The notes under the pieces were generated by a model that made no database searches, was not told the origin of the DNA, and saw only the letters and a list, made by a program, of their open reading frames with translations. DNA of 64,000 nt from Phyllobates terribilis. Taxonomy: Eukaryota. This document shows, in pieces, positions 14,011 through 61,829 of this stretch. The stretch is from assembly GCF_046119375.1 (NCBI RefSeq), contig NW_027362764.1, forward strand, positions 72,912,001 to 72,976,000, in the 5' to 3' direction. The position numbers and the translations under genes were made by a program. Every line of letters starts with the position of its first letter. Within the stretch, counting starts at the first letter, position 1.

Positions 14011-14396
14011 TTCCTGCCTAGTAAAATTTAGTACTCCGGGACTAAACAATAAACAAAGATAATATGCATGACCATAAAACATTAGTAGACAAACGACGCA
14101 CAGGTTGAGTTCTTAAGGTCACAGTGTGGTCTGTGACCGGGTGTCCATATCACCAACACAACGGGGAGCCTTAACCAGGTGGGGGTCTGTCTTAGCCCCA
14201 AGTCCTTTACAGTCTTAGTTCATTCCTTGGTCAGGCTCCGAATGCAGTCCATACAAAGTCCCTGTTATTAAAAGTTCATAACCTTTGAGTCCGTACGGTA
14301 ACTGTAAGAAACTGAAATACACAATTACTAATCATGCATGTAATTTTGCAAACATTTAGCACTTGGCAACAGGGTTATTTACAGTTTAAGTGCACC

Positions 14397-19727: not shown

Positions 19728-19785
19728 GGGTAAAACCGGGCGCCCCCAACGTACTTATTGCGCCAATTGTAAGGGCCTGGTGATC

Positions 19786-20779: not shown

Positions 20780-21177
20780 CTTCCTCCCCCCCAGTTAAGC
20801 GTGGCCTACCTTCCGACGATCCTCTTCTGTAGGCCGCGGCTCCGCTGGTGCTGCTCCGGACGAGGACCTTGCGTCGCGTCCTGGTGACGTCAGTGTCGCT
20901 CTCTCTCCCTTCCAGGACCTTGCGCAGCGTCGGTGCGTGGGGCGGAGCTTCCGGTCTCGCGCGGTTTGGACGTCCACACCCCTCTTCTTCCCGCACGGCG
21001 TCCTGAAGATGGCGTCCGATGGCGGGAAAACGTCTGAAGATGGCGGGAACCGACGGAAGATGGCGGGAGACGGCTGAAAATGGCGGGAAACGGCTCTGGA
21101 TGGCGGGAAACCTCTTCTTCAGGTACGAGTACAGTCTTTTTCAGGCACGCAATACCCGTCTGTGGTGGGTTGGTCGC

Positions 21178-21196
21178 AATCCTGCCGACTACGCCA
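21178..21196 (-). promoter_or_regulatory. Primer-binding site, tRNA-Ser(AGA/TGA type)
   Basis: TGGCGTAGTCGGCAGGATT is complementary to the 3' end ...AATCCTGCCGACTACG-CCA of vertebrate tRNA-Ser; lies 4 nt from the LTR end. Confidence 0.92.
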
Positions 21197-21200
21197 AAGC

Positions 21201-22220
21201 TGACTTGCCCCCTGGGCCGTGGGGCACTCGGAATCGGGCTTCAGGGCAATGCTGGGAGTAGTAGTGGCGACCCGGTTCCGTGGCTCAGGGTGGTCAGACC
21301 AGTGGTAGTCTGCTATGTGCTGTAGGTAATGTCCGACTACACCACCCGTGGATTGCAGTCAGGGCTAACCACCGCTGCAGTGCAGACCGCTGGGGCTGAT
21401 ATAAATGTGCAGCACTGAATAGTTCAACTCCCCACGGGAGGAGTATGGCCCCAGGGCAGTATATATAATGGATGATGGAGGGGATGATTCCGACCGCGAT
21501 AGCCAGGAAACGGAGGCCTCTTAAACAGTTCAGGGTCTTTATTAGGACAGGTAAAATGACCCAGAAACAGGCCCGGCTAGGAGGGGGCCTGGATGTCTGA
21601 GAACAAGTGGGAAGCTGGCCCTGGTCAGGGTGAGGGTGTAGGCCTACCGTGCTCTCTGTGCTCCTTCTGGCTATTTCCCTCCTTGTAGTGTAACAGCCCA
21701 CGTTCCCGAGCTCACCGTGTCCTCTCGCCCGTATGGCTTGCAACTTGGGTCCCTTTCTACTCCCGGCCTGGTACGGCTTTGCTGGTCCCTTCTGCTGTGG
21801 CGGAGCCTCCGGGCTTCTTAGGCCAAGGAACATACAGTCCCCTGTGGACTGGTTATCTGCTGTAGGACGTGGAATCCTCACAGCCTCAGACACCAAAGTC
21901 TGGTAGATTAGTTTCTCTATCTGCCAGGACAGGCTCACTTCGCCTCTTGTCCCTGGCTCGTGGCTCTCCTACTGCCACACATCCTCTTAGGCTGCAACAC
22001 AACTGTCTGTCCCTGCTCTGGGACACCTCTCAATCCAGAGACAGGTTGTCCAGTTCTCCCTAACCCTGCCCCCAGCTCCAGCTTTTATAGGGGCAGCCTG
22101 CTCCCCCTACTGGTCTGGGACAGGAGGTGCTGCTTGCTAATGGTCCTTGACTAGAGGACCTCCCCCTTGCTCTCAGACACAGCTTTATTATATTTGTGGC
22201 ATCCAGGCCAGAGTGACACA
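21201..22220 (-). repeat. Gypsy-1 5' LTR
   Basis: Paired with 12991-14010 and adjacent to the PBS. Confidence 0.95.
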
Positions 22221-23008
22221 CTTACATGGTAAACTTCTTACATGGTGAACTTCTTACATGGTGAACTTCTTACATGGTGTACTTCTTCCATGGTGAACTT
22301 CTTACATGGTAAACTTCTTACATGGTAACCTTCTTACACGGTGTACTTCTTACACGGTGTACTTCTTACACGGTGTACTTCTTACATGGTGTACTTCTTA
22401 CATGGTGTACTTCTTACATGGTGAACTTCTTACATGGTAAACGTCTTACATGGTAAACGTCTTCCATGGTGAACCCATGGTGAACTTCTTACATGGTAAA
22501 TGTCTTACATGGTGTACTTCTTACATGGTGAACTTCTTACATGGTGAACTTCTTACATGGTAAACGTCTTACATGGTGTACTTCTTACATGGTAAACTTC
22601 TTACATGGTAAACTTCTTACATGGTGAACTTCTTACATGGTGTACTTCTTACATGGTAAACTTCTTACATGGTAAACTTCTTACATGGTGAACTTCTTAC
22701 ATGGTGTACTTCTTACATGGTAAACTTCTTACATGGTAAACTTCTTACATGGTGACCTTCTTACACGGTGTACTTCTTACATTGTGTACTTCTTACATGA
22801 TGTACTTCTTACATGGTAAACTTCTTACACAGTGTACTTCTTACATGGTGAACTTCTTACATGGTGAACTTCTTGCATGGTGAACTTCTTGCATGGTGTA
22901 CTTCTTACATGGTGAACTTCTTACATGGTGTACTTCTTACATAGTGAACTTCTTACATGGGGTACTTCTTACATGGTGTATTTCTTACATAGTGAACTTC
23001 TTACATGG
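22221..23008. repeat. 16-bp satellite, segment 3
   Basis: About 49 tandem copies resuming at the CTTA TSD. Confidence 0.95.
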
Positions 23009-24028
23009 ATAGTTATTGGACGTATAGCATTATTTTAAACATAAATGAATAAAATGTATGGTTTTAACTTTATGAAGCTGGATCTACCTCCTCCTCCTTA
23101 CGTGTATCCCGTTTCCGGCATTGATGCTGGTCCGTGCTCCGGAGTATTACAGGCTGTGTGGGTGAGCTGGCTACTCCCTTGCTACTTTGTTTTTTACAAT
23201 TCAAAAAAGATTTAAAGGGAACCTGACAGCTTCCCCTGGTCTCCTGCAAACCGCCACCATGTATTTATTGCTACCTTATACCTTTCCTAACTAGGGATGA
23301 ACGGATCTGTGGAAGTTTTGATTCTGGCACCAGACCAAACTATAGTCTAAAGTTTGGTTCGGGTGCCAGAACTGTACTCGAACTTGAACCTTGAACCTCT
23401 CTCTCTCTCTCTTCCCCGGACTCCCGGAACTGTAAAACGGACTTCCAGGAGAAGTCTGTGTTCGGAGTTCAGCACCCGAACTTTACAGTTCAGCTATACT
23501 AATCTTTATTCCTAACAAGTCCATTTTATTGTCTCATTGATTTTTTCCTAGGGCAAAAAACAATGTTATGACTGTGATGGCAATATGCTAATTAGTAGGT
23601 GACTGGTCTTGGGAGCGTTATTTTCACTGTGGCCGTGATTTTGCAAGAGCGTAGTCAAAGCCTGCTCTTTGCAAATCTTCGCTCACTGGCAATTTGCAGT
23701 TAACGATGCATACACACCCTGACTTCATCAGCGCACTGCGCATGCCCACGGGGGTGGCTGGTACATACGACACACTGGGCATGCAATATAATTTGCAAGA
23801 GCGGCATCACCACCAAATCTTTGCAAATCTCTAGCTCCCTGACAATGTGCCACATCCAGTTTACTGCAAATTATCAGGGAGCCACTGATTTGCAAAGATG
23901 CGACGGTGATGCCGCTCTTGCAAATTATATTACTCACGTCCACAAGGACATGATAACATGATTAGTGGGATAATTAGTCTGGGGACAACAATGCCCCACT
24001 AATTAATGCAGTCCACTAATTAGCATAT

Positions 24029-25301
24029 TGTAGCACCCCGAGGACTCGGCTGCTACAGGAGTATTGCACCTCAAACCAGAGGTGTGGTATTCCACTCCCG
24101 GGTAAGGATGGAGTGTGGGACAGAGCTCAGATAGCTGCATGCACTACACTCACCCCATTTCCGGGGGACAGAACATCGGTACTCCCACCAGATAGATGTG
24201 CAGGTACGACAGCGTCTGTCCCTGGCTGGAGTGGGGGGGGGGGAGGAACATCCCAGTAGTGTAGGAGCAGATAGGGGAGGGACTCTGGGCATAGGTAGGA
24301 GCCCATTGGGTGCTAGTCACCTGGGCTCGGGTGTCAGAGGGAGTATATAAGGTGGGCACCATCTTGAGACAGGGTCTGTTCAGCCTGGAGGAGTGGAGAA
24401 AGGAGCTCAGCCAGAGAGGGCTGAGGGGGAGCTGTGGCTCCGTCTGGGCCCAGCTCCAGAGCCAGGCCTGAAGCATAGAGAGGGAAGGAAGAAGAGGAAC
24501 ACAAGGAAAGGCCCAGAGACGCAAGCAGAAGGAACCCTGAGATCCCACGAGTGAACTAAAACGGGTGAAGGGTTGGCAGAGAAGGGTACCGGATCCCAAA
24601 CTGGTGGAGGTCAATCATCCTTAGCCAGGAACCGGAGGTCGTGGTCAAGCTTTGGCACGACCCCTCGCCACATCCACCAGGAAGGCACGCCACATAGGGT
24701 CAGGAAAGCCGGAGAGAGGTTTTGCCCCATAAGGCCCGAGGAAGCCGGACATAGGTGGGTCCCTGGTGAGGACGTCCAGTAGGAAGGAAGAGAGGGGAGC
24801 TCTGGACCACGCTCTGGAATCGCCTGGGAGTTGGCCGAGTCCCTGACCTGGTGGACGCAGCACGGCTCGGGTGGTCCTACTGTGCACAAGGATCTGATAA
24901 AGAACTGTGAGTAAAGCTTTTGAAACTGCACTTCCCGCCTCTGTGTTCCTGCCGTCACACCTGCACCCTCAGCTCTGGGACACCCGCACCATCACTCCCA
25001 TCATCATCTCTAACAGATCTGCCCTGAGGCCATACTCCTCCCGTGGGGAGTCATCTCATTCTCAGCTGCACAAACAACACCGGCCTCAGTGGACTGCCGT
25101 GCAGCGGCGGTTCCGTGACCGCAATCCACGGGTGGCGTAGTCGAACATTCTAACATCTACTGCTAAATACTGCCGCTCAGTTTGACTCCCTGGGCACGGA
25201 CCGGGTCACCGCCACCAGACTACTACCCCCATCTGATCCGGCTCCGGGTAAGCCCCCGTGCGCGCGATGCCGCACGACACAGCAGGCCCAGGGGCGCGTC
25301 A
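24029..25301 (+). mobile_element. Solo LTR related to the LTRs of the CSD element; no TSD detected
   Basis: TGTAGCACCCCGAGG...GGGGCGCGTCA; 5' part closely matches the LTR at 42177; TATAAGG plus CACCATCTT at about 24346; flanks ATAT and ACTT do not match. Confidence 0.85.
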
Positions 25302-31271: not shown

Positions 31272-32333
31272 ATGTCCGTCGAACAGCAGAACGCCGACCT
31301 ACCGGTCAACGTCCCCGAAGTCCAACCCGCGCCCGATGATGAGCAGGCCGAAGCCGCCGCTCCACCAACAGCTCCTGTAACACCTGTAATTCCTATGACT
31401 TTACCGTACATTCCTGGAGCAAAGTGGCTCCCTCAGTACAACGGCAAACGAGATACCCTGTCTGGATTCAAACGGAAGATATGTGGTATCTTAGACATGT
31501 ACTCTATGACCGGCAAACAAAGAGCTGCCATTGTATTAGGACAACTGACCGGTTCTGCGGAGCGGGAAGTGGAAACATGGTCAGCCGCAGACCAGGAGTC
31601 AGTGTCCGAAATATTCCAAAAACTACAGACTGTATTTGAGGACCTTACTGAGGCGGACCTCCAGATGAGGTTCTACAGCTGCTCTCAACAACCAGAGGAC
31701 AATGTTCGGGACTACGCCTGGCGTCTCCAAGGGGCCCTGCGGGCTCTGAACCAGGTTAGTCCAACCAGCGTTGAGAATGAGAACAGAATGCTTAAGGAAC
31801 AGTTTGTCCGGGGACTGAAGTCTCCAGAGGAGAGCAGGACTGTGCGTTGGTGGTCCCTGGATCATCCGAATGCCACCTTTGACAATCTTAAGGAAAAGGC
31901 TATAAAATGACTGCAGCCCCTGGAAACAAATGCCATCCAACGTTACCAGGGTGGGGCTACTCCAGTGCCTGCTACACCCACATTTTCCCCAGTGGCTGCT
32001 GAAGCTAAGGTTCCAGCAACGTCCCCTAAAGAACTGGACAGTCTGCGCTCTGAGGTGCGTCAGTTGAGCAAGACCCTGACCACCGTGCTGAGTGCCCTGC
32101 AGCTGCGGACGGAGCCCGAGGAAGGAGGGAAGATCCTGCTAGCCGACAGCCCTGAGGATGTCCCCTGGATGCGGAGGAGGAGGAGGCCAACACCACCCTC
32201 GCCAAGGACCAGTGACCAGCGCCGCCCACCGAGGGAACCAACCTGCCACCGATGCCGTAAGACCGGACACCTCGCCCAGAAGTGTCCTTTAAACGAGAAA
32301 ACCCTGGGTCCGAGGGCCGACACCCAGGAGTAG
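31272..32333 (+). pseudogene. gag: Gypsy-2 gag with one in-frame stop (31908-31910)
   Basis: ORFs 31272-31910 and 31965-32333 share a frame; knuckle CHRCRKTGHLAQKC; homologous to the Gypsy-1 gag. Confidence 0.9.
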
Positions 32334-35300
32334 ACTCACCAGGCCCATCAGACTGGTACAACAGGTTCGTCGTAGGAAGACCTTTCCTGTCCATTGTATT
32401 GGACGGGATCCCAATGCATGCCCTGCTGGACACAGGATCTCAGGTAACCATCATGCCTGACGTTCTCTACAAGAGGTTCTGGTCCATGGACGATCTACGT
32501 CCGCCAGCTCCAAATTTGTCTGTGTATGCTTCAAATGGACTCCCCCTTAACCTACTCGGGGTTAAGAATGTGACTGTAAAGGTGGGGAGAGTGGAGCTGA
32601 AGGACCAGGGACTAATTGTAGTAGAGACCAATCCTGATGACACTAATCCGTACATGGTACTTGGCACTAACATTGTTGGTAACTGTTTGGGAGAGGTTGT
32701 GTTCTTACTCCAACAGATCACCGACACTGCCAAACCAGGACAGAGGAGGGCACTGCAGAAGGAGATCCGCGTCCTGATGTATCAACATCAAGTAAGGTTG
32801 ACAGATGGTGAAATCGGTAACGTGAGGGTAACAGACCCCATACCCATTGTCATCCCCCCAATGAGTGAAATGCTCATCTGGTGTAGAGCTGCCATAGGTC
32901 TTAGAGGACAGAGCTACCAGGCGGTAGTAGAACCCCTTTGCTCCGAGCATAGACCCACGCTCTTAACCGCCAGGGGAGTGGTAGATGTACGTAATGGGAG
33001 GGTGCCTGTCCGTCTTCTTAACCTAGGGGAAGATGAGGTCAAACTGCCACGTTATGCCACTGTTGCCAAATTACATGCTGTCAATAATAACTGCATCCAT
33101 GAGGCGGAGTCCTTAACCTCACCAGATGAAGTAGAGGATAATGACCCTGCAACCCAGGTGGAAGATTGGTGTCAACAGCTCCATGTTGGGACAGACACCA
33201 CTCCTGCCCATCAAAAACAGGGTATACACCGGGTGGCTCAAGAGTACTCGCAGGTGTTCAGTAAACATCCACTAGACTTCGGGAGGATTAAGGGGGTTCA
33301 ACATCATATCTCCACAGGCAGCCATTCCCCAATCAAAGAACGCTATAGGCCTATACCCCCAGCTCACTACCAGAAGGCAAAAGAAATGCTGCATGACATG
33401 AGGAAGGCGGGAGTAATTATGGATAGTTGTAGTCCCTGGGCAGCTCCCCTAGTGCTGGTTAGGAAAAAGGACGGGAGCATGAGAATGTGTGTAGATTACC
33501 GTCAAGTAAATCGTAGTACACATAAAGATGCATACCCTTTACCACGCATAGAGGAGTCCCTGGCTGCCTTAAAGTCTGCAAATTACTTTTCCACCCTTGA
33601 CCTCACTAGTGGATACTGGCAAGTAGCTGTGGCTGAGGAGGATCGGGAGAAGACGGCCTTCACCACCCCGATGGGACTCTGCGAGTTCAACAGCATGCCG
33701 TTTGGACTCTGCAATGCCCCCAGAACGTTCCAGAGATTGATGGAGTGCTGCCTGGGACACCGCAACTTCGAGACTGTGTTACTTTACCTGGATGACGTAA
33801 TTGTGTACTCCAGAATGTACGAGGACCACTTGAAACACCTGGCAGAGGTATTTGAGTCACTGTCCCGGTACGGGATGAAGTTGAAGCCCTCAAAGTGCCA
33901 CCTGCTCAAGAGGAAGGTACAGTACCTGGGACACATTGTCAGTCCGGAAGGTGTAGCACCAGACCCGGAGAAAGTCACAGCCATCCAGAAGTGGCCGGAG
34001 CCGAAGAACCTCAAGGAGGTGCGTCAGTTCTTGGGACTAGTAGGATACTACCGGAGGTTCGTAAAGGACTACACAAAGAAAGCAGCTCCTCTGCAAGACC
34101 TCCTGGTAGGGCAGTCCCCCAAAGGCAAAAACCCTCCATTCCGCTGGGGTAAGGAGCAAGCCGAGTCGTTTCAGGAGATGAAGGAGATCCTGACAGGTGA
34201 TGAGATCCTAGCCTACCCTGACTACAGCCAACCGTTCCTGCTGTATACGGATGCCAGCAACGAAGGCCTGGGCGCTGTCTTAAGTCAGAAGCAGAATGGG
34301 CAAGAGAAAGTCATCGCATACGCAAGCAGGAAGCTCCGTCCGACTGAGAGGATCCCAGAGAGCTATAGCAGCTTCAAGTTGGAGTTCCTGGCCTTAGTCT
34401 GGGCCATCACTGAAAGATTCAAGCACTATCTGGCTTCCAGCAAGTTCACTGCCTATACTGACAACAACCCCTTGACCCATCTTGAAACAGCTAAGTTGGG
34501 GGCTCTGGAACAACGATGGATGTCTCGGCTGTCAAACTACCAATTTACAATTAAATACCGGGCGGGCCGCAAGAACGCCAACTCCGATGCCCTGTCTAGG
34601 ATGCCTCACCAGTCAGACACAGAAGAAGAAGTGGATGACCTGGAAGAGATAGAGCTACCTGCCTTTCACCAGAGTGGGATGATCCATGAGCAACGAGCCT
34701 CCAGGAAGCCACGTGAAAAGACGTTAAACCCCCTTCCTCACCACAGCTGGAAAGAGACCCAGGACAGCGACCCGGTTGTCAGCCGCATCAAACAGCTGAT
34801 AACCCAAGAAGGTGCCTCCCTGGAGAAAGATGCGTCTCTCCAAGCAAAGCAGCTGTGGAACGAGAGAAGCCGGCTGTTTATCTACCGCGAGAAGCTGTGC
34901 CGGAGGTACGTTAATCCAAGAACCCACGAGATGGTATGGCAGATAGTGGTCCCAAAGACAGACATCCAGATGGTATTAGAAGCTTACCACGATCAAGCGG
35001 GGCACTTTGGCTGGAAAAAGCTAGAGACCCTGCTGAAATGTCGATTCTACTGGGTAGGAATGCGCAGCTCCATTGAAAGGTGGTTGCCGGGACTGTGGAC
35101 CCTGCGGCCTAAGAAGAAAGGACTTCAGCAGCCAGAAGGCACCCCTGCAACCCATCAAGACGACTAGGCCCCTGGAGATCGTGGCCCTGGACCATGTCAA
35201 GTTGTCACCCAGTCGGTCAGGATACTCCTATGCCCTGACCATGGTGGATCATTACTCACGTTTCCTGGTGGTCGCCCCCGTCAAAGACCTGACGGCAGAG

Positions 35301-36422
35301 ACAGCAGCAAAAACGTTCCAAGCGTATTTCTGCAGACCCCATGGATACCCTGAGCAGGTGCTGACGGACCAAGGCCCGGCCTTTGAGGCTGAATTGTTCA
35401 AAGAGTTCTGCCATCTCTACGGGTGTAAAAAGATAAGAACTACGCCTTACCACCCACAAACAAACGGTCTCTGCGAAAAGATGAACAACATCATCATCGA
35501 CCTGCAAAAGACCATACCACTTGAGGAGAGAAACCAGTGGCCAGACCTACTACCAGACCTAGTGGATCTGTACAATCATATACCAGTCAGTTCCACGAAT
35601 TGCACTCCGGCATATCTCATGCGGGCAAGGCAAGGAAAGCTGCCCATGGATTTGGAGCTTGGTGTTGTTGAACCTGAAGCTGATATGACCACTGAGGACT
35701 GGGACACCACCAGACAAGAGCAGTACAGAAGAGTACAAGCTTGTGTCAAGGACAGTCTTACTCGGGTGAGAGAAAAGCAGGAAATGCACTACAACAAAAA
35801 CGCTCCAGCAGAACCTTTCACACCTGGTGAAACAGTACTAAAAAGGAAAAGACGCAACCACAAACTTGATGACCAGTGGGAAAAAGACCCCTACACTGTG
35901 TTACCGTCAAGATTTGACAACAAAAAGACTTGTATAATCAGTCGTGATGGAGGAAGAACATCTGCTACAGTGTCCAGGGATCATCTAAAATTGTGTCCAC
36001 ATCTACTAAAGACTCAGGAAGAAGTGCCTCTCACAACCCAGGAAGAACCTAAAGAAACAGTGATCCACACTGACCTAGGAGACTTTCCAGCGGATTGGCC
36101 TCAAATAGGAGGTGCAGTAATCATTCCAGTACTCCAATTCTATGAACTGCCAGAAAACCCTCCACAGCAAGTTGTACCTGTAAATGCTGCAGAAGAGCCA
36201 GCTCAAGAAGTGTTCCCGGATGAAGGATCACCGGCAGGAGCAGAGCAAGAGGGCCCTAGCCTTGCCAGTCCAAGAGAGAGGTTAAGGCAGTTTTACAACA
36301 TGGCCACACGTAGAACTGGTAGAGTAACTGAGGATACAGATACTGACACTCCACCAACCACAGCACTACGCAGATCAGTACGCAGCACGAGAGGTAAACC
36401 CCCTGCTAGGTACACTGAGTAA
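32282..36422 (+). pseudogene. pol: Gypsy-2 pol (PR-RT-RH-INT) in the -1 frame to gag, with one frameshift near 35085
   Basis: 961-aa ORF with LLDTGS, YLDD, RNase H and the integrase zinc-finger start, plus a 449-aa ORF with the integrase core (TDQGPAFE...YHPQTNGLCE). Confidence 0.95.
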
Positions 36423-39133: not shown

Positions 39134-40394
39134 TGTGGCGCCCCTGAGGGTTCAGTCACCACAGAGGTACTGCACCTCACCCAGAGGTGTGGTGTCTCCT
39201 TCTCTCAGGTAAGGAGGGAGTGCTGCCCGGAACCCCAACACCCACATTCAACACTACACTGCTCCAGGCCGGCTGGAAGGGCAAGATGCATTGTGTTTTC
39301 CTCCTTAGCCCTGTCCCTGGCTGGAGTGGGGGGAACCAAAGGTAGGGGGAACCAGTAGTGGGTGTGGGTGGAGGAAGCGGAGTAGGGGAGCACCATTGTA
39401 AGAGGTATATAAAGGGAAGCCATCTTAGGGTGGCAGTTCAGTCAGTCAGTGAAGAAGTGAGTGAGAACAGTCAGGGAGCAGAGTCTCTTTAGGAGCTCTG
39501 CTCCACAAGTGGGGCCTAGTGATAGAGGCCCAGGAGGGGAGCAGAGGAGAAAGGCTCCGTTCTATAGAAGGGATCCCAGGGGGTACGGCGAGTGCAGGAC
39601 GGCACCCGTACGCCACGAATCTGCCAGGTGTCAGAGGGATCAGGCCGCAAGAAGGGGACCGGCCCCTGGAACAGCCGTGTTACTCCAGGTCTCGGCTGGA
39701 AAAACCGGAGGCTTCTGACTTTTATAGGGCAGTTGCCACAGCCTCATCTTAGTCACCGTGAGGGTCAAGTAGGTCCGGGAACTCCAGGTTGCCCAGAGGG
39801 ACTTCAGAGCACCCGAGCGGGACTGTGAGTGGGGAAGCGCTGGGCAGGAGGGAGAAGACCCAGCGTGAAGTCGGTCAAGGAAAGCAACATAAGAAAGCGG
39901 GGTTCCGTCAAGTACTCCTGACACATCTGAGGAAGAGCTGAACCCCCGGTCTGGTGAACGCAGCGCGACGTGGGAGGCTGACACCCGTACAGTGCACCTG
40001 TGGAGCTTACATAAAAACTGTGAGTAAAAACTCGGATGACTGCACTGCACTGCCTCCGTCCATTATTTCAGCTGCGCCATCTCTCCCTCTGCACTACAAG
40101 CCCCAGCATCACCACCCACCATCAAACTCCACACTGCTCCCGGGGGCTCGCTCCACCTGTGGGGAGCCGAAACACCTCAGATGCCATCCCATCACCCCCC
40201 GGAGGTCTGCAGCAGCGCTGGTAAACCTTACCAGGTACCACAGGTGGCGTCACGAACTCTATAAATCCCCTATAAATAGAAAGCCGCTTTTTATTGACCG
40301 CCCTGGGCCTTGGACCGGGTCACCGCCACTGTGATATCACCCCCTGCATCTATCGGCCCGGCACCGAGTACCCCACGGCCCAGGGGTCGCATCA
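39134..40394 (+). mobile_element. Solo LTR A1 (family A)
   Basis: TGTGGCGCC...TCGCATCA; TSD GAAA at 39130-39133 and 40395-40398. Confidence 0.93.
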
Positions 40395-40955: not shown

Positions 40956-42172
40956 TGTGGCGTCCCCGAGGGTTCAGTCACCACAGAGGTACTGCACCTC
41001 ACCCAGAGGTGTAGTGTCTCCTTCTCTCAGGTAAGGAGGGAGTGCTGCCGGGAACCCCAACACCCGCATTCAACACTACACTGCTCCAGGCCGGCTGGAA
41101 GGACAAGATGCATTGTGTTTTCCTGCTGAGCCCTGTCCCTGGCTGGAGTGGGGAGAACCAAAGGTAGGGGGAACCAGTAGTGGGTGTGGGTGGAGGAAGC
41201 GGAGTAGGGGAGCACCATTGTAGGAGGTATATAAAGGGAAGCCATCTTAGGGTGGCAGTTCAGTCAGTCAGTGAAGAAGTGAGTGAGAACAGTCAGGGAG
41301 CAGAGTCTCTTTAGGAGCTCTGCTCCACAAGTGGGGCCTAGTGATAGAGGCCCAGGAGGGGAGCAGAGGAGAAAGGCTCCGTTCTGTAGAAGGGATCCCA
41401 GGGGTACGGCGAGTGCAGGACGGCACCCGTACACCCCGAATCTGCCAGGTGTCAGAGGGATCAGGCCGCAAGAAGGGGACTGGCCCCTGGACCAGTCGTG
41501 TTGCTCCAGGTCTCAGCTGGAAAAACCGGAGGCTTCTGACTTTTATAGGGCAGTTGCCACAGCCTCATCTTAGTCACCGTGAGGGTCAAGTAGGTCCGGG
41601 AACTCCAGGTTGCCCAGAGGGACTTCAGAGCATCCGAGCGGGACTGTGAGTGGGGAAGCGCAGGGCAGGAGGGAGAAGACCCAGCGTGCAGTCGGTCAAG
41701 GAAAGGAACATAAGAAAGCGGGGTTCCGTCAAGTACTCCTGACACATCTGAGGAAGAGCTGAACCCCCGGTCTGGTGAACGCAGCGCGACTTGGGAGGCT
41801 GACTCCCGTACAGTGCACCTGTGGAGCTTACATAAGAACTGTGAGTAAAAACTCGGATGACTGCACTGCACTGCCTCCGTCCATTATTTCAGCTGCGTCA
41901 TCAAACTACACACTGCCACGGGGGCTCGCTCCACCTGTGGGAAGCCGAAACACCTCAGCTGCCATCCCATCACCCCCCGGAGGTCTGCAGCAGCGCTGGT
42001 AAACCTTACCAGGTACCACAGGTGGCGTCACGAACTCTATAAATCCCCTATAAATAGAAATCCGCTTTTTATTCACCGCCCTGGGTCACGGACCGGGTCA
42101 CTGCCACTGTGATATCACCCCCTGCATCTATCGGCCCGTCACCGAGTACCCCACGGCCCAGGGGTCGCGTCA
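40956..42172 (+). mobile_element. Solo LTR A2 (family A)
   Basis: About 4% divergent from A1 over the first 290 bp, plus a deletion of about 43 bp; flanked by GAAA at 40952-40955 and 42173-42176. Confidence 0.93.
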
Positions 42173-43460
42173 GAAATGTAGCGCCCCGAGGGTTCGGCCG
42201 CTACAGGGGTATTGCACCTCTGCCAGAGGTGTGGTATTCCACTCCCGGGTAAGGATGGAGTATGGATCAAGACTCAGCTGCATACAGCACACACACCCCA
42301 TTTCCGAGGGACAGCTCAACGGTGCTCCCACTAGACAGAAGTGCAGGCACGACCGACTATGTCCCTGTCTGGAGTGGGGAGGGAGGTGGAATACCCAGTG
42401 CTGTTGGGGCAGATAGGGGGTTGTTCCTGAGCGTAGGAAGGAGCCCATTGGTTGCTGGTCACCTGGGCTCATGGTCAGAGGGAAGTATAAAAGGTGGGCA
42501 CCATCTTAGATCTAGGTTCGTTCTGTCCAGGGAGGAGAAGACAGGGAGTAGAGGCTCTGTAGGAGCTCTACTCCAGGAGGGCCTAGTGAGAGGCCGAGGA
42601 GGAGGTGAAGGGGAGCTGTGGTGTCACCTCAGCCCAGCTCCACGAGAAGGGAGGAGAAGGAGGAACAGGAAAGAAGGGGGAGAGACAGAGAAACAGAAGG
42701 GCTCAGGAACAAGAAGGTGGAAGGGACCCTAAGAACCCATGAGAATCCAGGGTGCAGGGTCAGGCAGATTAAGGGAGCCGGATCCCAAGTTGGTGGAGGA
42801 GAAACTACCCTCAGCCAAAGACCGGACGTCGTGATCATTTATTGGTGCGACACCTCATCAAACCTACTAGGAAGGGACCATATAGGGCAGCGGAGGACGG
42901 GGCCCACATTTAACCGCACAAGTCCGCGGTAGCTGGACAAAAGTGGGTCACTGGTGAGGCAGGCCAGAGGAAGGATTGAAGGGGGTCCTGAGCCATACTC
43001 CTGAGCTGCCTGGGAGTTGACCGAGCCCCTCACCTGGTGGATGCAGCACGGCTCGGGCAGTCATTGCCAGCTGAAGTGACTTGGATATTAACCGTGAGTA
43101 AAGACCCTGGACTGCAGAACGTTGTCTGTGTGCTTTTTCGCTCCTCCGGCACTACCGGTACTGGGACTCTCACCACCATCACTCCCACCATCCACTACAC
43201 TGCCCTGGGGCCGCAGGCTTCCCGTGGGGAGTCACATAATCCCAGCTGCATACATCATCGGCCCCAGCGGTCTGCCCTGCAGCGGTGGTTCCTGATAACC
43301 GCAATCCACGGGTGGCGTAGTCGGACATCTCTTAAAACATCTAAAAGACTGCCACTGGTCTGACCACCCTGAGCCACGGGACCGGGTCGCCACTACTACC
43401 CCCATCGTCTCCCTATCGCCCGGTTCCGAGTGCCCCACGGCCCAGGGGGCGAGTCAGCTT

Positions 43461-43479
43461 TGGCGTAGTCGGCAGGATT
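43461..43479 (+). promoter_or_regulatory. PBS, tRNA-Ser(AGA/TGA type), of the CSD element
   Basis: TGGCGTAGTCGGCAGGATT after the same GCTT spacer as in Gypsy-1. Confidence 0.92.
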
Positions 43480-43574
43480 TTTACCAACCCGCCACAAACG
43501 GGTATTGCGCGCCTGAAAAGAGACTGTTATTTTGTTTTAAAGATGGCGCCCGCCCTAGAAGAACGAGCGCCATA

Positions 43575-45231
43575 ATGTGCGCGCCAAAAGACCACAAGAG
43601 GCCGCCTCCCATCGTGGGCCAGGTCCCAGAATGGCGCCAAAGAGGAAGCCCGCCCCCAACAACCATGAGCACGGCTGTGGAGATGTCCATCAAGGTGGGG
43701 GGGCTGCCCCTGAGAGTGATTGTCAGCAGAATGCCCCAGGACCACCCCTCATGGGGGCGGAAAGAGAAGAAAACTGCGGGGCAGGGGGTGGTCTGGATCA
43801 CTCTGGCCAGGCCGCACCCTGAGATGGAGAAAGGAGCCAGCTCCAACACCTTGGCAAGGGGCCTGCTGCAGGCCGCACCACCATGCAGCTTCACAGAGCT
43901 GCTAGCCCACCTCCCCAAGGGAGACCCCGAGTATGCGCGGGCGGCGCTGGAGGAGCTGGACCGGAGGATGGTCCGGGCGCAGCAGGACGTGATTGCCGGG
44001 TGGAAAGAAGAAATGGCTCGGCGGGCTGTGACCCTGCAGCAGGAGGCGCCGTCGACATCCAGCAGCACACCAGCCACCGAGGGCAGTGAAGACAGAGCGG
44101 AGGCTGAAGACGACACCGTGGAGGAGGCCGCGACAGCAGAGGCAGGTAACGGAGACGCCCCTACCCCGAACCCCGGGGCCGCCGACCTGCCCCTGCACCC
44201 TGTTGCGGAGCCCAACGTACCTGGACCCGCCGTCAACACCGTGCCTCCACCGCCACCAACCGGCCCCCAGGCCGTCGATGCTGCCAGTGAGCCCCGCCCC
44301 ACGCCGTGCCCTCTGACCCCGGGCGTGCTCAGCAGAACACCATCGCAGGCTCGGCCGCAAGGCCTAGCGCCCCCGGGCGCCGCTTCCCCGTCGGAACCCC
44401 CTGCTCCCGCTGTATCACCCCTGGGTGCAACTAGGAAACGACCACCGCGGGCCTGGTTGCAAGGCCGCGTACCCCCGGGCGCCGCCAACCCGCTCGCGCC
44501 CCCTGCCTCTGCAGTACCACCACTGGGCGCAGATCTTTTCGCCCAACATACCTGTCCGGATGGGCTTCCTTTTGTCTGGCCCCCCGAGTATGTTAACCCC
44601 CGCCTTCGGAGGAGCCCGCCCGCGGAGGTTGGAGTATCATCTGAGCCCCTCATACCTGCTCCGGCGCCTCAGGAAACCCCCCAGCTGCTGTTGGAGGACG
44701 CCCAGTTTGAATGGGACCCCACTGGGGAGGACCTGATGGGGTTCACACAGGAAACACGGGCGGACGCAGCCGAACGGCGGGAGGCCTGCCGCCAACAGCT
44801 AGAGATGTTTGAGAGGGAGCATCGAGAGCGGCGCGTGAAACAAGAGAAGCTGCAGGTCCAGAGCGCGGAGCAGGAGATGAAGACTCGGCAAGACCCCCGA
44901 GCTGCCCGCGGTCCCCGAGTCACCGGGACTGTTGTGAAGTTTCAGATGGAGCGCGGCTGAGGTTTCATCTGAGACCATCAGCGACACGTTCGTAACGAGG
45001 AGGGATGTAGAGAGCCACCTGCCGGAAGGTCATCGAGGGCAGGATCTCTATCCAGGGAATGTGGTATCTTACACCCGGCACCAAGGCGTGAAGGGATGGT
45101 ACGCCCTCCACGTCCACAGAGTAGTAAAGGAGGAGGAACAGCACTACTCGGACTCTGAGTACCAAGAGGACCCGGACGGGCCTGAAGACTATGAGGAGCA
45201 AGGAGCGGCTGGAGGGTATCGCTACCTGTAA
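43575..45231 (+). pseudogene. Coiled-coil and Pro/Ala-rich protein with a C-terminal Y-box-like cold-shock domain; this copy has a stop and a frameshift within the CSD
   Basis: The 461-aa ORF ends ...RVTGTVVKFQMERG* followed by GFI; a +1 shift at 44970 continues ETISDTFVTRRDVESHLPEGHRGQDLYPGNVVSYTRHQGVKGWYALHVHRV...YRYL* (stop at 45229-45231). This matches the CSD pattern GTVKWF...G(F/Y)GFI...DVFV...G..V.F...G.KG..A.NV. Confidence 0.8.
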
Positions 45232-47170
45232 ACAGTAGCATGCCAGTGTAAATAGTTACCCGTCAGGGTACAAAGGAACTGTTTGGGACTGTTTCAAATT
45301 GAGTGTGGTGCCCGTTGGGACTGATATAGGACTGTTTGACTGTTGCCCTATCCCCTAGGTAACCTGGCTGAGGACTGACAGCAGCCATCCCTCTTCCCTT
45401 TAACAGGCTGAGGACTGTGAGCAGTCATTCCCCCTTTTCAACCGGCCGAGGACTGGGAACGGCCAATCCCTTGTATATAGTTGCGCTTCCTAAAGCGTCC
45501 CCTACTTGTTTTATACAAAAACCGCAACGTCTACCTCAAGATTAACTGGACTGTTGCACCTTTACCTGGTAGCAAGTTGCACCGCGGCCATGATCCAAGA
45601 ATCCAAGAATGTGCTTTACTTAAAAATGTTTGACATGAGAAAGTTTTATATGCTGCTAGGTGATAATGCAAGAGTTTTATACGATGTTTTATACAAAAGA
45701 GTTCCGGAAGTATTGAAAATGTTTTTTATAATGCCTAGTGAAAAGAAAAGTGTGTCCCATAAAGGGAATTGAACAATGTCGTCCGTTTCTGATGTAAAAG
45801 GTTATTGAAAAAGTTTGCATGTCCTGTAATTAATTGTTTTTCCTCTTTTCCAGCCCGAGGACGTGCTGTGCTTTACCAGGGGGGAATGTAGCGCCCCGAG
45901 GGTTCGGCCGCTACAGGGGTATTGCACCTCTGCCAGAGGTGTGGTATTCCACTCCCGGGTAAGGATGGAGTATGGATCAAGACTCAGTTAGCTGCATACA
46001 GCACACACACCCCATTTCCGAGGGACAGCTCAACGGTGCTCCCACTAGACAGAAGTGCAGGCACGACCGACTATGTCCCTGTCTGGAGTGGGGAGGGGGG
46101 TGGAATACCCAGTGCTGTTGGGGCAGATAGGGGTTGGTTCCTGAGAGTAGGAAGGAGCCCATTGGTTGCTGGTCACCTGGGCTCATGGTCAGAGGGAGGT
46201 ATAAAAGGTGGGCACCATCTTAGATCTAGGTTCGTTCTGTCCAGGGAGGAGAAGACAGGGAGTAGAGGCTCTGTAGGAGCTCTACTCCAGGAGGGCCTAG
46301 TGAGAGGCCGAGGAGGAGGTGAAGGGGAGCTGTGGTGTCACCTCAGCCCAGCTCCACGAGAAGGGAGGAGAAGGAGGAACAGGAAAGAAGGAGGAGAGAC
46401 AGAGAAACAGAAGGGCTCAGGAACAAGAAGGTGGAAGGGACCCTAAGAACCCACGAGAATCCAGGGTGCAGGGTCAGGCAGATTAAGGGTGCCAGATCCC
46501 AAGTTGGTGGAGGAGAAACTACCCTCAGCCAAAGACCGGACGTCGTGATCATTTATTGGTGCAACACCTCATCAAACCTGCTAGGAAGGCACCATATAGG
46601 GCAGCGGAGGACGGGGCCCACGTTTAACCGCACAAGTCCGCGGTAGCTGGACAAAAGTGGGTCACTGGTGAGGCAGGCCAGAGGAAGGATTGAAGGGGGT
46701 CCTGAGCCATACTCCTGAGCTGCCTGGGAGTTGACCGAGCCCCTCACCTGGTGGATGCAGCACGGCTCGGGCAGTCATTGCCAGCTGAAGTGACTTGGAT
46801 ATTAACCGTGAGTAAAGACCCTGGACTGCAGTACGTTGTCTGTGTGCTTTTTTGCTCCTCCGGCACTACCGGTACTGGGACTCTCACCACCATCACTCCC
46901 ACCATCCACTACACTGCCCTGGGGCCGCACTTTTCCCGTGGGGAGTCACATCATCCCAGCTGCATACATCATCGGCCCAAGCGGTCTGCCCTGCAGCGGC
47001 GGTTCCTAATAACCGCAATCCAGGGGTGGCGTAGTCGGACATCTCTTAAAACATCTAAAAGACTGCCACTGGTCTGACCACCCTGAGCCACGGGACCGGG
47101 TCACCACTACTACCCCCATCATCTCCCTATCTCCCGGTTCCGAGTGCCCCACGGCCCAGGGGGCGAGTCA

Positions 47171-48513
47171 GAAAGACCTGTCCCCACTTACTGTAGAGAT
47201 AGAAAGACCTGTCCCCATTTATTGTAGCGATAGAAAGACCTGTCCCCACTTACTGTAGAGATTTAAAAAAAACTGTCCCCACTTACTGTAGAGATAAAAA
47301 AAACTGTCCCCACTTACTGTAGAGATAGAAAGACCTGTCCCCACTTACTGTAGAGATAGAAAGACCTGTCCCCATTTATTGTAGCGATAGAAAGACCTGT
47401 CCCCACTTACTGAAGAGATAAAAAAACCTGTCCCCACTTACTGTAGAAATAGAAAGACTCAACCCCACTTACTGTAGAGACAGAAAGACCTGTCCCTACT
47501 TACTGTAGAGATAGAAAGACCTGTCCCCACTTACTGTAGAGATAGAAAGACCTGTCCCCACTTACTGTAGAGATAGAAAGACCTGTCCCTACTTACTGTA
47601 GAGATAGAAAGACCTGTCCCGACTTACTGTAGAGATAGAAAGACTCAACCCCACTTACTGTAGAGATAGAAAGACCTGTCCCTTCTTACTGTAGAGATAG
47701 AAAGACCTGTCCCTACTTACTGTAGAAATAGAAAGACCTGTCCCCACTTACTGTAGAGATAGAAAGATCTGTCCCCACTTACTGTAGAGATAGAAAGACC
47801 TGTCCCCACTTACTGTAGAGATAGAAAGACTCACCCCCACTTACTGTAGAGATAGAAAGACTCAATCCCACTTACTGTAGAGATAGAAAGACCTGTCCCC
47901 ACTTACTGTAGAGATAGAAAGACTCACCCCCACTTACTGTAGAGATAGAAAGACTCAACCCCACTTACTGTAGATATAGAAAGACCTGTCCCTACTTACT
48001 GTAGAAATAGAAAGACCTGTCCCCACTTATTGTAGAGATAGAAAGATCTGTCCCCACTTACTGTAGAGATAGAAAGACCTGTCCCCACTTACTGTAGAGA
48101 TAGAAAGACTCACCCCCACTTACTGTAGAGATAGAAAGACTCAATCCCACTTACTGTAGAGATAGAAAGACCTGTCCCCACTTACTGTAGAGATAGAAAG
48201 ACTCACCCCCACTTACTGTAGAGATAGAAAGACTCAACCCCACTTACTGTAGAGATAGAAAGACCTGTCCCCACTTACTGTAGAGATAGAGAAACCTGTC
48301 CCCACTTACTGTAGAGATAGAAAGACGCAACCCCACTTACTGTAGAGATAGAAAGACCTGTCCCTACTTACTGTAGAGATAGAAAGATCTGTCCCCACTT
48401 ACTGTAGAGATAGAAAGACCTGTCCCCACTTACTGTAGAGATAGAAAAACCTGTCCCCACTTACTGTAGAGATAGAAAAATCAGTCCCCACTTATTGTAG
48501 AGATAGAAAGACC
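47171..48513. repeat. 31-bp satellite, segment 3 (about 43 units)
   Basis: Tandem 31-mers resuming at the GAAA TSD. Confidence 0.95.
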
Positions 48514-52699: not shown

Positions 52700-55600
52700 C
52701 CCTTTTCTTCAAGCCGGCAAGAAATTTTTCCAGAAGAAGATGAACATTAATGTTCTCCCTGGGCTCCCATCATCTCTCCTCAGGACCAAACCCCTTCCAA
52801 TCCACAAGAAAAAAAGTTTTTCCCCTTACCCTCTTGGTAACCAAAATGTTCTCTACCTCAAAAATGTCCTCAGAGCTGACTGGAGCTGGAGCGGTACCCG
52901 TATCATCAGAGAAAGGATTGAGGACAACAGGCTTGAGGAGAGACACATGGAAGGAATTGGGGATCCGTAACGAGGCAGGGAGTTTCAACTTGAACGCCAC
53001 TGGATTAATTTGGCTCAGAATCTCGAACGGACCGATGAAGCGCGGATCCAACTTGTAAGAAGGTATCCTGAGACGGACATACTTGGAGGAAAGCCATACC
53101 TTGTCCCTCAGACGGAATAGAGGCGGGTCAAGACGTCTCTTATGTTGCTTCATCCGCTCAGAGGATTGAAGCAGTGCCGTTTTCGTGTCCTCCCAAATCA
53201 CCGAAAAGTCTCTGACGAGAGACTCCGCAGCAGGATTGTCAGCTGAAGTAGAAACAGGAAACGGAATATTGGGATGCTGACCATACACTACAAAGAATGG
53301 AGATTTGGCTGAGGATTCACTCACATGGTTATTGTAGGAAAATGCGGCCCAAGGTAGGAGCACCACCCAGTCGCTATGGTGAACGTTGACGAGATGCCGA
53401 AGGAAACTAGTGAGGATCTCATTGATACGCTCAACCTGACCATTGGACTGAGGATGATAGGCCGAAGAGAAGTCCAATGCAACATTCAGCAGCTTACATG
53501 TGGCTCTCCAGAAGTGTGAAGTAAACTGAACTCCTGTATCCGAGATAATATGGAGAGGTAGGCTGTGGAGACGGAAGATGTGAAGGATGAAGTCTTTGGC
53601 TAGCAGTGACACATAAGGAAGACTTGGCAAAGGAATGAAGTGAGCCATCTTGGAAAAGCGGTCAGCGACCACCCAAATGACACTACAACCGGCCTATACA
53701 GGAAGATCCGTGATGAAATCCATTGCGATATGATGCCACGGAGCAGAAGGCACGGGAAGAGGAAGAAGTTGACCAGTCGAAAGTTGCCTAGGTGTCTTGT
53801 TACGGGCACAGGAAGAGCAAAATCCGCAACGTCCTTGAATAGAGTCGGCCACCAATAATGTCGGAAAATTAGCAGAAGCGTCTTCCTCTGACCGGCATGT
53901 CCAGCCAGTTTGGACAAATGACCCCAGAGTAAGACCCCCCTCCTATCCGGGGGGAAGATAAGACAGGTCAATCGGGGCGACAGTCATTATTCTGGAGGGA
54001 TCAATGATGTGCAGAGACTCCTCCTCTTGATCGGTAGACAGAAATGAGCGAGAGAGCGCGTCTACCTTAATATTCTTGTCTGCTGGACAGAAATGGAGAG
54101 TGAAGTTGAAGCGAGCAAAGAACAAGGACCATCTGGCCTGACGAGGATTGAGTCGTTAAGCAGATTGCAAGTAGGAGAGATTCTTGTGATCCGTATAGAT
54201 GACCACTGGGTACAAAGCCCCCTCTAGCAAGAACCGCCATTCCTCCAATGCTAATTTAATAGCAAGCAGTTCTCAATCTCCAATGGAGTAATTGCGCTCT
54301 GAAGGAGAGAAGAGCTTGGAAAAGAAGCCACAAGTTACCATTTGCCCGGACGAGGACTTCTGGGTGAGAACTGCTCCAGCCCCAGAGGAAGAGGCATCAT
54401 CCTCCAGGAAGAACTGCTTGTTACAGTCAGGACGATGAAACACCGGGGCAGAGGATAAGGCTTGTTTCAAGGATACAAAGGCGTTTTCCACCTCGGGAGT
54501 CCATTCCTTGGAGTTAACCCCTTTGCGGGTCAGAGCAGAAAAGGGAGCTGTCTGGGAGGAAAAATGAGGAATGAACAGACGGTAATAATTAGCGAACCCC
54601 AGAAACCGCTGAATAGACTTCAGCCCCTCAGGTCAGGGCCACTTTAGAATGGCAGACACCTTTTCGGGATCCATCTTAAGCCCGGTCTCCGAGATTATGG
54701 ATCCCAGAAAGGGAAGAGAAGTCTGTTCAAATACACATTTTTCGAATTTGGCATACAGACGATTCTTCCTGAGCCTCTGCAATACCTGTCGAACGTCTCT
54801 TCGATGCGAGGGCAGATCAGAAGAGAACACCAGGATGTCGTCCAGATACATTACCACGCACGAGTACAGAAGATCTCGGAAGATATCATTCACCTGTTCT
54901 TGGAAGACTGCTTGTGCATTGTAGAGTCCGAATGGCATCACGCGGTACTTCTAGTGGCCATCCCGGGTGTTGAATGCCGTCTTCCATTCATCACCCTGGC
55001 GAATCTGGATCAGATTGTATGCGCCACGGAGATTGAGCTTAGTAAAGACCTTAGCGCCCTTGAGACGGTCAAACAACTCGGAGATGAGAGGCAGAGGATG
55101 CTTGTTTTTGAGAGTGATTTGATTTAGACCCCTATAGTCGATACACAGGCGAAGAGAGCCATCCTTCTTCTTGAGGAAGAAGAAGCCTGCTCCCGCAGAA
55201 GAGGTGGATTTCTGGATGAATCCCCTAGCAAGATTCTTTTTGATGTATTCGGACATGGCTCGGGTCTCAGCCAATGACAGGGGGTAAATTCGACCTTGGG
55301 GAGGTGAAGCACCAGGAATGAAGTCGATAGGACAGTCATACTGCCTATCTGGTGGTATCTAGTGGTAGTGTCTCAGCCTCCTTCAAAGACGTCAGCGTAA
55401 GACCAGTAGGGTGCCGGTAAACCGGGCAAATTGGCTGGAGTGGACGGAGGTCGAGCAGGACGGACAGGAACCTAGCAGGTTTTGTGACACTCCTGACCCC
55501 AATGGAGCACCTCTCCCAAACTCCAGTTTAAAACCGGCTCATGTGTTTGAAGCCAGGGCAGTCCAAACAGTAAAGAGTGGGAGAGGCTGGACAGCACGTA

Positions 55601-60624: not shown

Positions 60625-61569
60625 ATGTCGTCCCCAGATGCAGTTGCAGGCATGGCAGACCAGGCCAGCGCAAGAGCCCCTACAGCTAGCCTACCCCTTG
60701 GCGCCATGTTGAATAATCTCCCAAAGTTTACCAGAGACAACATGATGCTGTGGGATTGGGTAGAACTGGTTAAGAGCATGCTACGGATGCACCCAATGAC
60801 CCCCGATATGCAAGCAGAGATAGCTTTGCTGGCTTTAGAAGGAGAAGCTCGACAGTCAGTAATGTTTCGTTCCCCCACTGACCGAAATACGGTGGAAAAG
60901 GTGGTACAGATCCTAGAAGAAATGCATGGGGACCCTACTAATGTGGCAGAGTTAAGGATGCGACTGTTCCAACAGGTACAAAGGGAGGGGGAGACTGTGA
61001 CCCAATATGTCAACGCCCTACAGAGTGTGTACACTTACATCACTAGGAAAACGAACCTAGAAGACGTGGGAGTGGGGCCCCCAAACCTAGTACTTAGGGA
61101 CCAGTTCGTAGCCGGCCTCAGAGATGCGCAGCTGAGACAGGCCTTGCGAGAGCGCTTGCGCACCAACCCGCGTATGGCATTTCTGGAGGCAGGGGCAGAG
61201 GCCCGTGTGAGGGAACAGGAGATGGGGGCAGTGACCCTGGCAGGGATGGACCGGGGCAATGCAGTGCCCCCGTCACCCGCGGCCGAACCAGAATGGGCCC
61301 GAGAGATGCGGCGGGAGATCCAAGAAATGCGAGAAGAGTGGTACAATATTCGAGTGGCTCAATCAGTGAGAGCCGGAACAGTTGACCAGAGACCCCCGGG
61401 CGAAGTAAAGGATGAGCCCACACCTCGAGTTGGAACAGAGCCCTATCGGGTGGCCCGACGACCCCCTGCAGACAGGGGACCAACGTGTTGGAATTGTGGG
61501 GGCATGGGGCATTACGCCAAGAGCTGTGCCAGTCGAGGAAGGCCTCTGTCCCGACAGCCGTTAAACTGA
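60625..61569 (+). CDS. gag: Gypsy-5 gag, open
   Basis: MSSPDAV... capsid-like region (LFQQVQREGETVTQYVNALQ) and knuckle CWNCGGMGHYAKSC; the ATG overlaps the end of the PBS. Confidence 0.88.
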   Translation: MSSPDAVAGMADQASARAPTASLPLGAMLNNLPKFTRDNMMLWDWVELVKSMLRMHPMTPDMQAEIALLALEGEARQSVMFRSPTDRNTVEKVVQILEEMHGDPTNVAELRMRLFQQVQREGETVTQYVNALQSVYTYITRKTNLEDVGVGPPNLVLRDQFVAGLRDAQLRQALRERLRTNPRMAFLEAGAEARVREQEMGAVTLAGMDRGNAVPPSPAAEPEWAREMRREIQEMREEWYNIRVAQSVRAGTVDQRPPGEVKDEPTPRVGTEPYRVARRPPADRGPTCWNCGGMGHYAKSCASRGRPLSRQPLN

Positions 61570-61829
61570 CGGGCTCCGGGTGTAAGGGACGCAACCCGGA
61601 GCGGAGGAAGACAGCGAGTCCCGAAGACTTAATATCCATGAGCCCGACAGTGTGGGCCAAGCTTGGCGGACGGCTGGTTCACTGCTTGATCGACACGGGA
61701 TCTCAAGTGACCACCATGGGAGAAACTTATTTCCGTCAGCGGTACCCAGAGATGGCACGAAATGAAGGGGGTCCCTTGATAAAGCTCACAGCCGCTAACC
61801 AACTGCCCATTCCGGTTACAGGAGTAGTG
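61560..61829 (+). pseudogene. pol: Gypsy-5 protease N-terminal part, truncated by an insertion
   Basis: HCLIDTGSQVTT...LTAANQLPIPVTGVV in the -1 frame; the reading breaks at TGTAACATCCC (61830). Confidence 0.85.

Follow-up and report, generated by a model that had tools for sequence, protein, structure and literature searches.

Why should a long terminal repeat (LTR) retroelement that has neither gag nor pol carry, as its single open reading frame (ORF), the gene for a protein with a cold-shock domain (CSD)? The question is raised by an element of ~5.0 kb on the plus strand, at positions 42177-47170 of a 64,000 nt stretch of the Phyllobates terribilis genome (NW_027362764.1, 72,912,001-72,976,000, forward strand), which we refer to as the window. 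We identify it as one damaged copy from a very abundant non-autonomous LTR family with several subfamilies, a real LTR element variant whose selected, host-type gene encodes a protein predicted to bind RNA, and we find that strong purifying selection acts on the CSD.

The 5' LTR (42177-43456, with TG...CA ends) contains a TATA-like box at 42486 and a poly(A)-like hexamer, AGTAAA, at 43097-43102, and its alignment with the 3' LTR (45887-47170) has 26 mismatches in 1281 aligned bases (~2% divergence). The pair is flanked by 4 bp target site duplications (TSDs) of GAAA at 42173-42176 and 47171-47174; a primer binding site (PBS) complementary to tRNA-Ser is located 4 nt past the LTR (43461-43479), and a polypurine tract (PPT) lies at 45878-45886. 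By pattern search the PBS is the complement of the 3' ends of tRNA-Ser genes in the same genome (G000, 10.6 Gb), and ARAGORN called Ser for 4/12 stretches in one set and Ala for 1/5 in another, with no call for the rest. The 2.43 kb interior gave no tblastn match to gag or pol, although the same search detects pol elsewhere in the window. The structure is that of an LTR retrotransposon, with a TG...CA LTR pair, TSD, PBS and PPT, and the initial annotation, which had proposed just this arrangement without gag and pol from the letters of the sequence, was correct. Rfam gave two matches, both at chance level.

The single ORF (43575-45231, plus strand) is 553-554 aa long in unbroken sister copies, and is broken in the window copy by an in-frame stop at 44958-44960 and by the loss, relative to an unbroken copy, of 8 nt after 44968. 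The stop had been recognised from the outset as a TGA at 44958; the frameshift then placed at 44970 is this 8 nt loss. Following the first ~105 codons there is a predicted helical hairpin or long helix (helix 1; residues 106-157, 43890-44045) with no family match, a Pro/Ala-rich linker that is predicted to be disordered and varies in length between subfamilies (44046-44700), and a conserved WD...LMGF motif with a long charged helix (helix 2; 44703-44912) that runs into the CSD (PF00313; 44913-45129). These two long predicted helices are as much as the analysis shows of the coiled coils first proposed. Taken singly, the two pieces of the window ORF have no Pfam match, and a translation that bridges each break by an X scores 18.1 bits for PF00313, below the cut-off of 27. 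Natural unbroken copies exceed the cut-off in 3/3 cases (29.1-33.4 bits) and then in 2/2 (29.1-39.5 bits overall), and Pfam reports for unbroken ORFs the CSD alone, without a capsid domain. An AlphaFold2 model of the helix and domain of a sister copy (mean predicted local distance difference test [pLDDT] score 79; barrel 76-91) has a five-stranded oligonucleotide-binding (OB) barrel, and its Foldseek matches are CspA, YBX1/2 and other CSDs, with template modelling scores (target) of 0.84-0.88 for CspA/CspC and 0.76 for YBX1; the matches listed are CSD proteins, with no capsid fold among them. The CSD initially read from the damaged copy is thus confirmed by both profile and fold. Bacterial and viral CSD clusters in the Atlas match the CSD part at 0.86-0.87 and serve as leads only, and the N-terminal part has no Pfam match, no usable Atlas match, and a pLDDT <50 for residues 1-110.

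A genome search with 411 bp of the CSD region returned 4,330 first-look candidates, 40 of which were scored (91-100%); the CSD is unbroken in 25 of 30 loci listed, about ten of these being segmental duplicates. When 20 copies were examined at 10 kb, 14 had two whole LTRs (1.2-5.8% diverged) that enclose an interior of 2.4 kb, in one case interrupted by an insertion; in four copies the ORF runs unbroken for 553-554 aa, starting at the conserved Met. A further search with PF00313 (33,380 first-look candidates, 150 scored) listed 30 loci, comprising 20 of further element subfamilies, eight of host CSDE1, one Y-box-like remnant, and one undisplayed. Most of 17 further-subfamily loci examined at 10 kb have the same anatomy; three of their LTR pairs are 100% identical and three 99.7-99.8%, the ORF is unbroken in all six, and the family has therefore moved very recently. 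Undisrupted copies have an interior of 2.3-2.55 kb without a pol match, and a script found matching 4-bp TSDs in 19 of 36 copies examined, two of them doubtful. Other LTR-flanked copies, the search for which had been suggested as a check on the first reading, are thus many.

The junction of LTR end and PBS occurs 48,435 times in the genome, as against none for a control. In a non-random sample (40 of the first 41 listed, all within the first 9 Mb of one contig) the junction leads to gag-pol in 18 instances, to a CSD ORF in 14, to the family without a CSD in four, to gag only in one, and to other sequence in three; among the 14 CSD copies the ORF is unbroken in eight and broken in six. Rough extrapolation from this sample gives an estimated ~17,000 CSD copies with the exact junction (roughly 10,000-25,000) which, at 5 kb each, amount to about 1% of the genome; for the family as a whole we put the number at some 10-30 thousand copies.

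The CSD family is likely copied by the gag and pol products of a related Ty3/Gypsy element. The candidate helper has a PNMA-like gag (23 bits, under the cut-off), CCHC, a weakly matching protease, reverse transcriptase, RNase H and integrase, and has in common with the CSD family the PBS and PPT (identical to those of the window element), the 4-bp TSD and a leader that agrees over its first ~70 nt. Dispersed insertions, together with a helper sharing these cis signals, place the family among the non-autonomous LTR elements. On the U5 side, the last 360 bp of the window LTR are 87-88% identical to autonomous Gypsy LTRs, and comparison with four helper elements gives 81-88% over this segment and no match in U3/R. 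In a U5 tree of 68 LTRs (3 of 71 were left out for a missing anchor) helper and family are interleaved, with 8 changes of which at least 7 are forced by well-supported branches; six helper U5s lie inside the 100/100 clade of the window's subfamily, and one family copy (L138) has a 5' LTR of helper type. U5 has therefore been exchanged between helper and family, presumably because both RNAs are packaged together and swap at the first strand transfer. Helper LTR pairs are 98.6-99.9% identical in the 8 listed. Derivation of the CSD ORF from helper gag or pol was considered and rejected, as no similarity between them was detected.

Selection on the protein was examined between and within subfamilies. 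The ratio of nonsynonymous to synonymous substitution (dN/dS) was estimated by the Nei-Gojobori method between 13 ORFs from four subfamilies, which were chosen as unbroken and for which dS is partly near saturation. The values are 0.11-0.21 for the CSD, 0.08-0.30 for the WD motif and helix 2, 0.28-0.43 for helix 1, 0.33-0.55 for the linker and 0.40-0.76 for the first 85 codons, so that for the CSD this further suggested check gave a result far below 1. The three conditions that the initial annotation had named as refuting it (no CSD or OB-fold match, no other LTR-flanked copies, dN/dS near 1) thus all failed to hold, and its interpretation is supported. Shifted frames give 1.2-2.0 for the CSD and about 1 or more elsewhere, with the exception of the first 85 codons when read in the +2 frame. 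Within subfamily A (21 copies) the corresponding ratio for variants (pN/pS) is 0.32 for those shared by at least two insertions and 0.71 for private ones (p = 7e-5); subfamily B (13 copies) gives 0.19 and 0.35 respectively (p = 0.004). Inside the CSD, shared variants give 0.13 (A) and 0.03 (B), single-segment tests being mostly non-significant. Amino-acid changes are thus scarce among shared variants, and new insertions stem preferentially from copies whose protein is sound. This pattern favours a cis action of the protein, which appears to benefit the copy that encodes it; we do not claim that it is indispensable.

The fate of damaged copies was also followed. Of 347 copies that have the sequence context of the window's stop, 4 carry the stop itself, three of the four being unclustered in a tree in which seven rows carry no information, and a spreading lineage of stop-codon copies was rejected on these grounds. 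Deletions in the CSD arise at microhomologies. One of these has 280 occurrences, compared with 6,526 undeleted copies, and six copies that carry it are scattered among full-length ones (5 changes in 6 copies, a number as low in 124 of 500 shuffles); it recurs at a microhomology and has not taken over, and a spreading lineage lacking the CSD is unsupported for it. A second deletion, with 81 occurrences, shows some clustering, in that two copy pairs group together.

The donor of the CSD was probably a host Y-box gene, captured before the split of the carrier poison-frog lineages. When 12 diverse CSDs of the family are combined into a profile, it scores 53.7 bits with YBX1, 44.8 with CspA, 24.5 with LIN28, 20.9 with CSDE1 and 17.1 with CARHSP1, a protein labelled Anomaloglossus scores 33 with YBX and no more than 19 with all others, and the loop length fits YBX1. 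A narrower CSD profile gives a tie (CspA 30.9, YBX1 30.2) and Foldseek ranks CspA first, ahead of YBX1, so that the Y-box likeness first suggested is partly supported. CARHSP1 and CSDE1, suggested as donors by local motif likeness, were rejected because they score far below YBX1. The family protein is not itself a Y-box protein, since identity to Y-box CSDs is about 30% (31-33%) and two RNA-stacking residues are lost. Cold-shock domains bind single-stranded RNA or DNA by way of aromatic residues in RNP1 and RNP2, and the Y-box CSD is nearly identical among its vertebrate members. YB-1 has four stacking residues, W65, F74, F85 and H87, and among the contact positions described (PMC7498358) F74 and F85 are mostly kept in the family, Y72 is replaced by Trp, and K118 is mostly basic; a new Trp-Tyr pair follows G119.

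Protein searches and an exhaustive profile search found named relatives in Phyllobates, Ranitomeya and Anomaloglossus only, and because protein sets mask repeats this range of three genera holds for protein sets only. The relatives are annotated as uncharacterised or are fused to neighbouring genes. A further pair, P0111/P0153, keeps the Trp at the W65 position, and no other relatives of it were found. Public gene models P0004, P0154, P0155, P0014 and P0029 join pieces of the family ORF to a Harbinger-type transposase, an R3H-domain gene, a vomeronasal receptor and other host genes; these fusions are probably annotation artefacts, exonisation being the alternative.

What might the protein do for the element? 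The reading we prefer, that the protein binds its own full-length RNA, stabilises it and aids its entry into helper particles, seems to us evenly poised. A bolder version, which we consider less likely than not, makes the family a satellite retroelement of a vertebrate: having lost gag and pol, it would have taken up a CSD from a Y-box gene of the host and turned it into a cis-acting RNA coat and adaptor of its own, and by winning places in helper particles and exchanging U5 with the helper it would have come to form about half of the elements with these termini in a 10-Gb genome. On the preferred reading the family would be transcribed from its own U3 and its RNA co-packaged with helper RNA, the U5 swap being the expected trace of a minus-strand jump between the two. 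The protein would act mainly in cis, as a Y-box-like coat on the full-length RNA that encodes it, with the basic helix ahead of the barrel adding RNA affinity, and the coat may increase both the survival of the RNA and its uptake by helper particles; the element's success would be improved without an essential role being implied. There is a parallel in host YB-1, by which retroviral RNA is stabilised and the production of particles supported (PMC6040738); its CSD unwinds RNA (PMC8464072).

Several observations weigh against the preferred reading. The position of W65 is Trp in just 1 of 12 rows and that of H87 is His in 0 of 12, and since these residues are not kept, affinity or specificity may differ from that of YB-1. 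The p-value for the CSD in subfamily A alone is 0.11. Copies lacking the CSD are young and numerous (4 of the 18 family copies in the junction sample), and some spread without a CSD in cis is likely. Finally, if few loci are active per cell, purifying selection would result as well, and a diffusible protein would then look cis-acting.

Of the alternatives, the one that survives best is that the protein is a regulator similar to Rev or to CERV of Cer1, binding its own RNA and either blocking splicing from a donor in the LTR to an acceptor ahead of the PPT or exporting the unspliced genome, which we consider rather doubtful. A splice-donor-like GTRAGT (43094-43099, plus strand) overlaps the poly(A) hexamer and was found in 47 of the 49 LTRs of the family as against 0 of 19 from autonomous elements, and an acceptor-like pyrimidine tract with CAG (45830-45853, plus strand), 33 nt upstream of the 3' LTR, is present at 17/17 family 3' ends listed; both are putative sites. 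There is also a precedent in CERV, which is required for export of unspliced Cer1 RNA (PMC10309623). However, autonomous ends too have AG at the acceptor position (19/19; 36 of 40 loci listed), in helper ends as TTTAG, and the donor motif may tune poly(A) use instead. Splicing between the two sites would remove the PBS and the ORF, and with the ORF inside the putative intron the protein would be made from unspliced RNA only, unlike CERV. The stretch is covered piecewise by four sets of contigs whose type was guessed, and the predicted splice is not among 15 of 33 joints, which argues neither for nor against it.

The protein could alternatively act in trans, raising the output of helper and passenger as a whole through RNA stability, translation or escape from PIWI-interacting RNAs, with intact copies persisting via a few active loci. 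The hundreds of CSD-less copies with near-identical LTRs agree with this, as do the approximately equal numbers of family and helper in the junction sample (18 + 18 of 40), but if the protein were freely shared, selection should not clear amino-acid changes from individual copies, as the strong depletion among shared variants indicates that it does, and shorter deletion forms have not displaced intact copies; we regard this explanation as unlikely. Less probable still is an interfering satellite, in which the protein suppresses helper RNA by masking or translational repression and so frees particles, and the host perhaps tolerates it as a brake on the helper. Y-box proteins mask RNA and repress its translation in oocytes, two elements with common termini that exchange U5 must compete for particles, and the conserved N-terminal helix has no known match; against this, helper copies are likewise young and abundant, and no link between the protein and helper RNA was found. 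That the CSD is a mere passenger, either a captured host fragment without a role or a highly eroded gag, is very improbable and is largely refuted by the low dN/dS of the CSD in several subfamilies and the depletion of shared variants: broken copies are common (the window copy and 6/14 of the sampled CSD copies), but relatives occur in three frog genera, there is no similarity to helper gag or pol, and the capsid fold is absent among the Foldseek matches listed.

Comparison with known systems sets the family apart. The helper, a Ty3/Gypsy (Metaviridae) element with a PNMA-like gag and a tRNA-Ser primer, has the same TG...CA LTRs, TSD, PBS, PPT, U5 and ~70-nt leader, whereas the family has its own U3/R, an ORF without detectable similarity to the helper and the GTRAGT motif, and neither a gag with capsid nor a pol with protease, reverse transcriptase, RNase H and integrase. 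The 1A11/Xretpos elements of Xenopus encode an ORF of gag-like make, with CCHC and leucine-zipper motifs. Compared by description only, they are likewise frog LTR elements with an ORF and without pol that are transcribed in embryos, but they number tens to hundreds of copies and are thought to be immobile, and no CSD is mentioned in the accessible part of that account (PMC4585706). The plant TR-GAG, LARD, TRIM and BARE-2 elements also depend on a helper for enzymes, and are non-coding or retain eroded gag or pol (PMC13570524, in the part accessible). The CSD family instead keeps a selected gene that is not of retroelement type: its interior is not non-coding as in TRIM and LARD, the ORF being under purifying selection, and no gag ORF is kept as in TR-GAG.

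Among proteins, YBX1 and YBX2 are the best-scoring solved relatives and share the CSD barrel with its long loop 3-4, although in the family the CSD is C-terminal, behind two long helices, and the alignments contain no Y-box C-terminal extension. Retroviral Rev and Rem are comparable extra non-gag proteins possibly acting on unspliced RNA. LINE-1 ORF1p has a long helix followed by an RNA-binding domain and a cis preference, as the family protein has a long helix followed by the CSD and a presumed cis preference, but LINE-1 is a non-LTR, autonomous element and its domain has the RNA-recognition motif (RRM) fold. CERV of Cer1 in C. elegans is also an extra non-gag LTR-element protein that acts on its own unspliced RNA, as the family protein could, but Cer1 is autonomous, unlike the family, CERV is made from a spliced mRNA, and no CSD is reported for it in the accessible part of the source (PMC10309623).

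No LTR element with a CSD is described in the literature searched (listings and abstract starts), in agreement with the initial annotation, which knew of no such family; repeat libraries, supplements, Repbase, Dfam and subscription journals are outside this scope and may list it. One poison-frog genome paper counts 66,046 LTR elements matching unknown repeats (10.1101/2023.11.06.565769) and another reports high Gypsy expression in ova (PMC6278860); the main texts of both, and of a review of accessory domains (PMC6338049), do not contain 'cold shock'. The family also puts a name to a share of the LTR load underlying poison-frog genome size that had previously gone unannotated. Usual non-autonomous LTR elements are non-coding or have eroded gag or pol, whereas here a selected gene of foreign origin is kept across subfamilies and genera in a family that is still multiplying. 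A transposon that took over an RNA-binding domain of its host and remodelled the binding face would be the reverse of the usual domestication, and the family opens the testable question of what limits access of a passenger RNA to a helper particle and whether a passenger can encode its own solution.

The 5' end of the ORF contains a second overlapping frame (43631-43822, plus strand) that starts MAPK, is 152 aa long in sister copies and has an early stop in the window. It is present in 11/13 unbroken copies and open for 150-196 aa in 7/13 (L031, L033, L040, L047, L083, L090 and L092), and in two natural copies (L036, L088) it is joined to the main frame. The first ~85 codons are possibly dual-coding; there is no third-position excess over the first 85, and the second frame may reflect either dual coding or an RNA-level constraint. 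Of the three ATGs initially offered as starts, that at 43575 lies in the long frame, that at 43631 opens the second frame, and that at 43543 opens a short upstream frame. The window leader (43539-43640) contains ATGGCG motifs and the leaders of the helper (for example L134 and L166) and of subfamily B contain repeated CCGCCATC(TT), both of which we take to resemble YY1 sites; helper leaders also contain an antisense splice-donor-like motif.

Within the window, two solo LTRs of a sister family (39134-40394 and 40956-42172; 93.5% alike) each have a GAAA duplication in the identical phase of a 31-bp satellite. The CSD element is inserted in the right-hand duplication of the second of these, its left TSD doubling as the right TSD of that solo LTR, and the satellite resumes after its right TSD. 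The shared phase of the three insertions may mark a hot spot at this place, or the satellite block may have been duplicated long ago; target-site specificity was considered and rejected, and the family is not site-specific, because insertions elsewhere have neither TSDs nor flanks in common. Further solo LTRs at 24029-25301 and 189-1392 are ~70% related to the CSD family. A damaged helper-type Gypsy on the minus strand (12991-22220; LTRs 22220-21201 and 14010-12991, 98.3%) has a TAAG TSD, the same PBS, gag and pol, and lies inside a 16-bp satellite; it contains a tandem array of 99-bp units at 14961-15549. Other Gypsy gag/pol pieces are located at 31389-36413 (plus), 53145-55331 (minus) and 60718-61826 (plus), with 68%, 34% and 25-32% identity to the helper protein respectively.

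Elsewhere in the genome, identical copies with the same flanks are found on several unplaced contigs (L014-L020, L023-L025, L043 and L046), the element having multiplied there within a larger repeat unit. Tandem elements arranged head-to-tail with one LTR in common occur at L047, L089 and L187-L190, and at 734.43-734.45 Mb of contig C1 (G000; L051-L056) there is a copy of host CSDE1/UNR that has few introns, is duplicated in part and retains long open frames.

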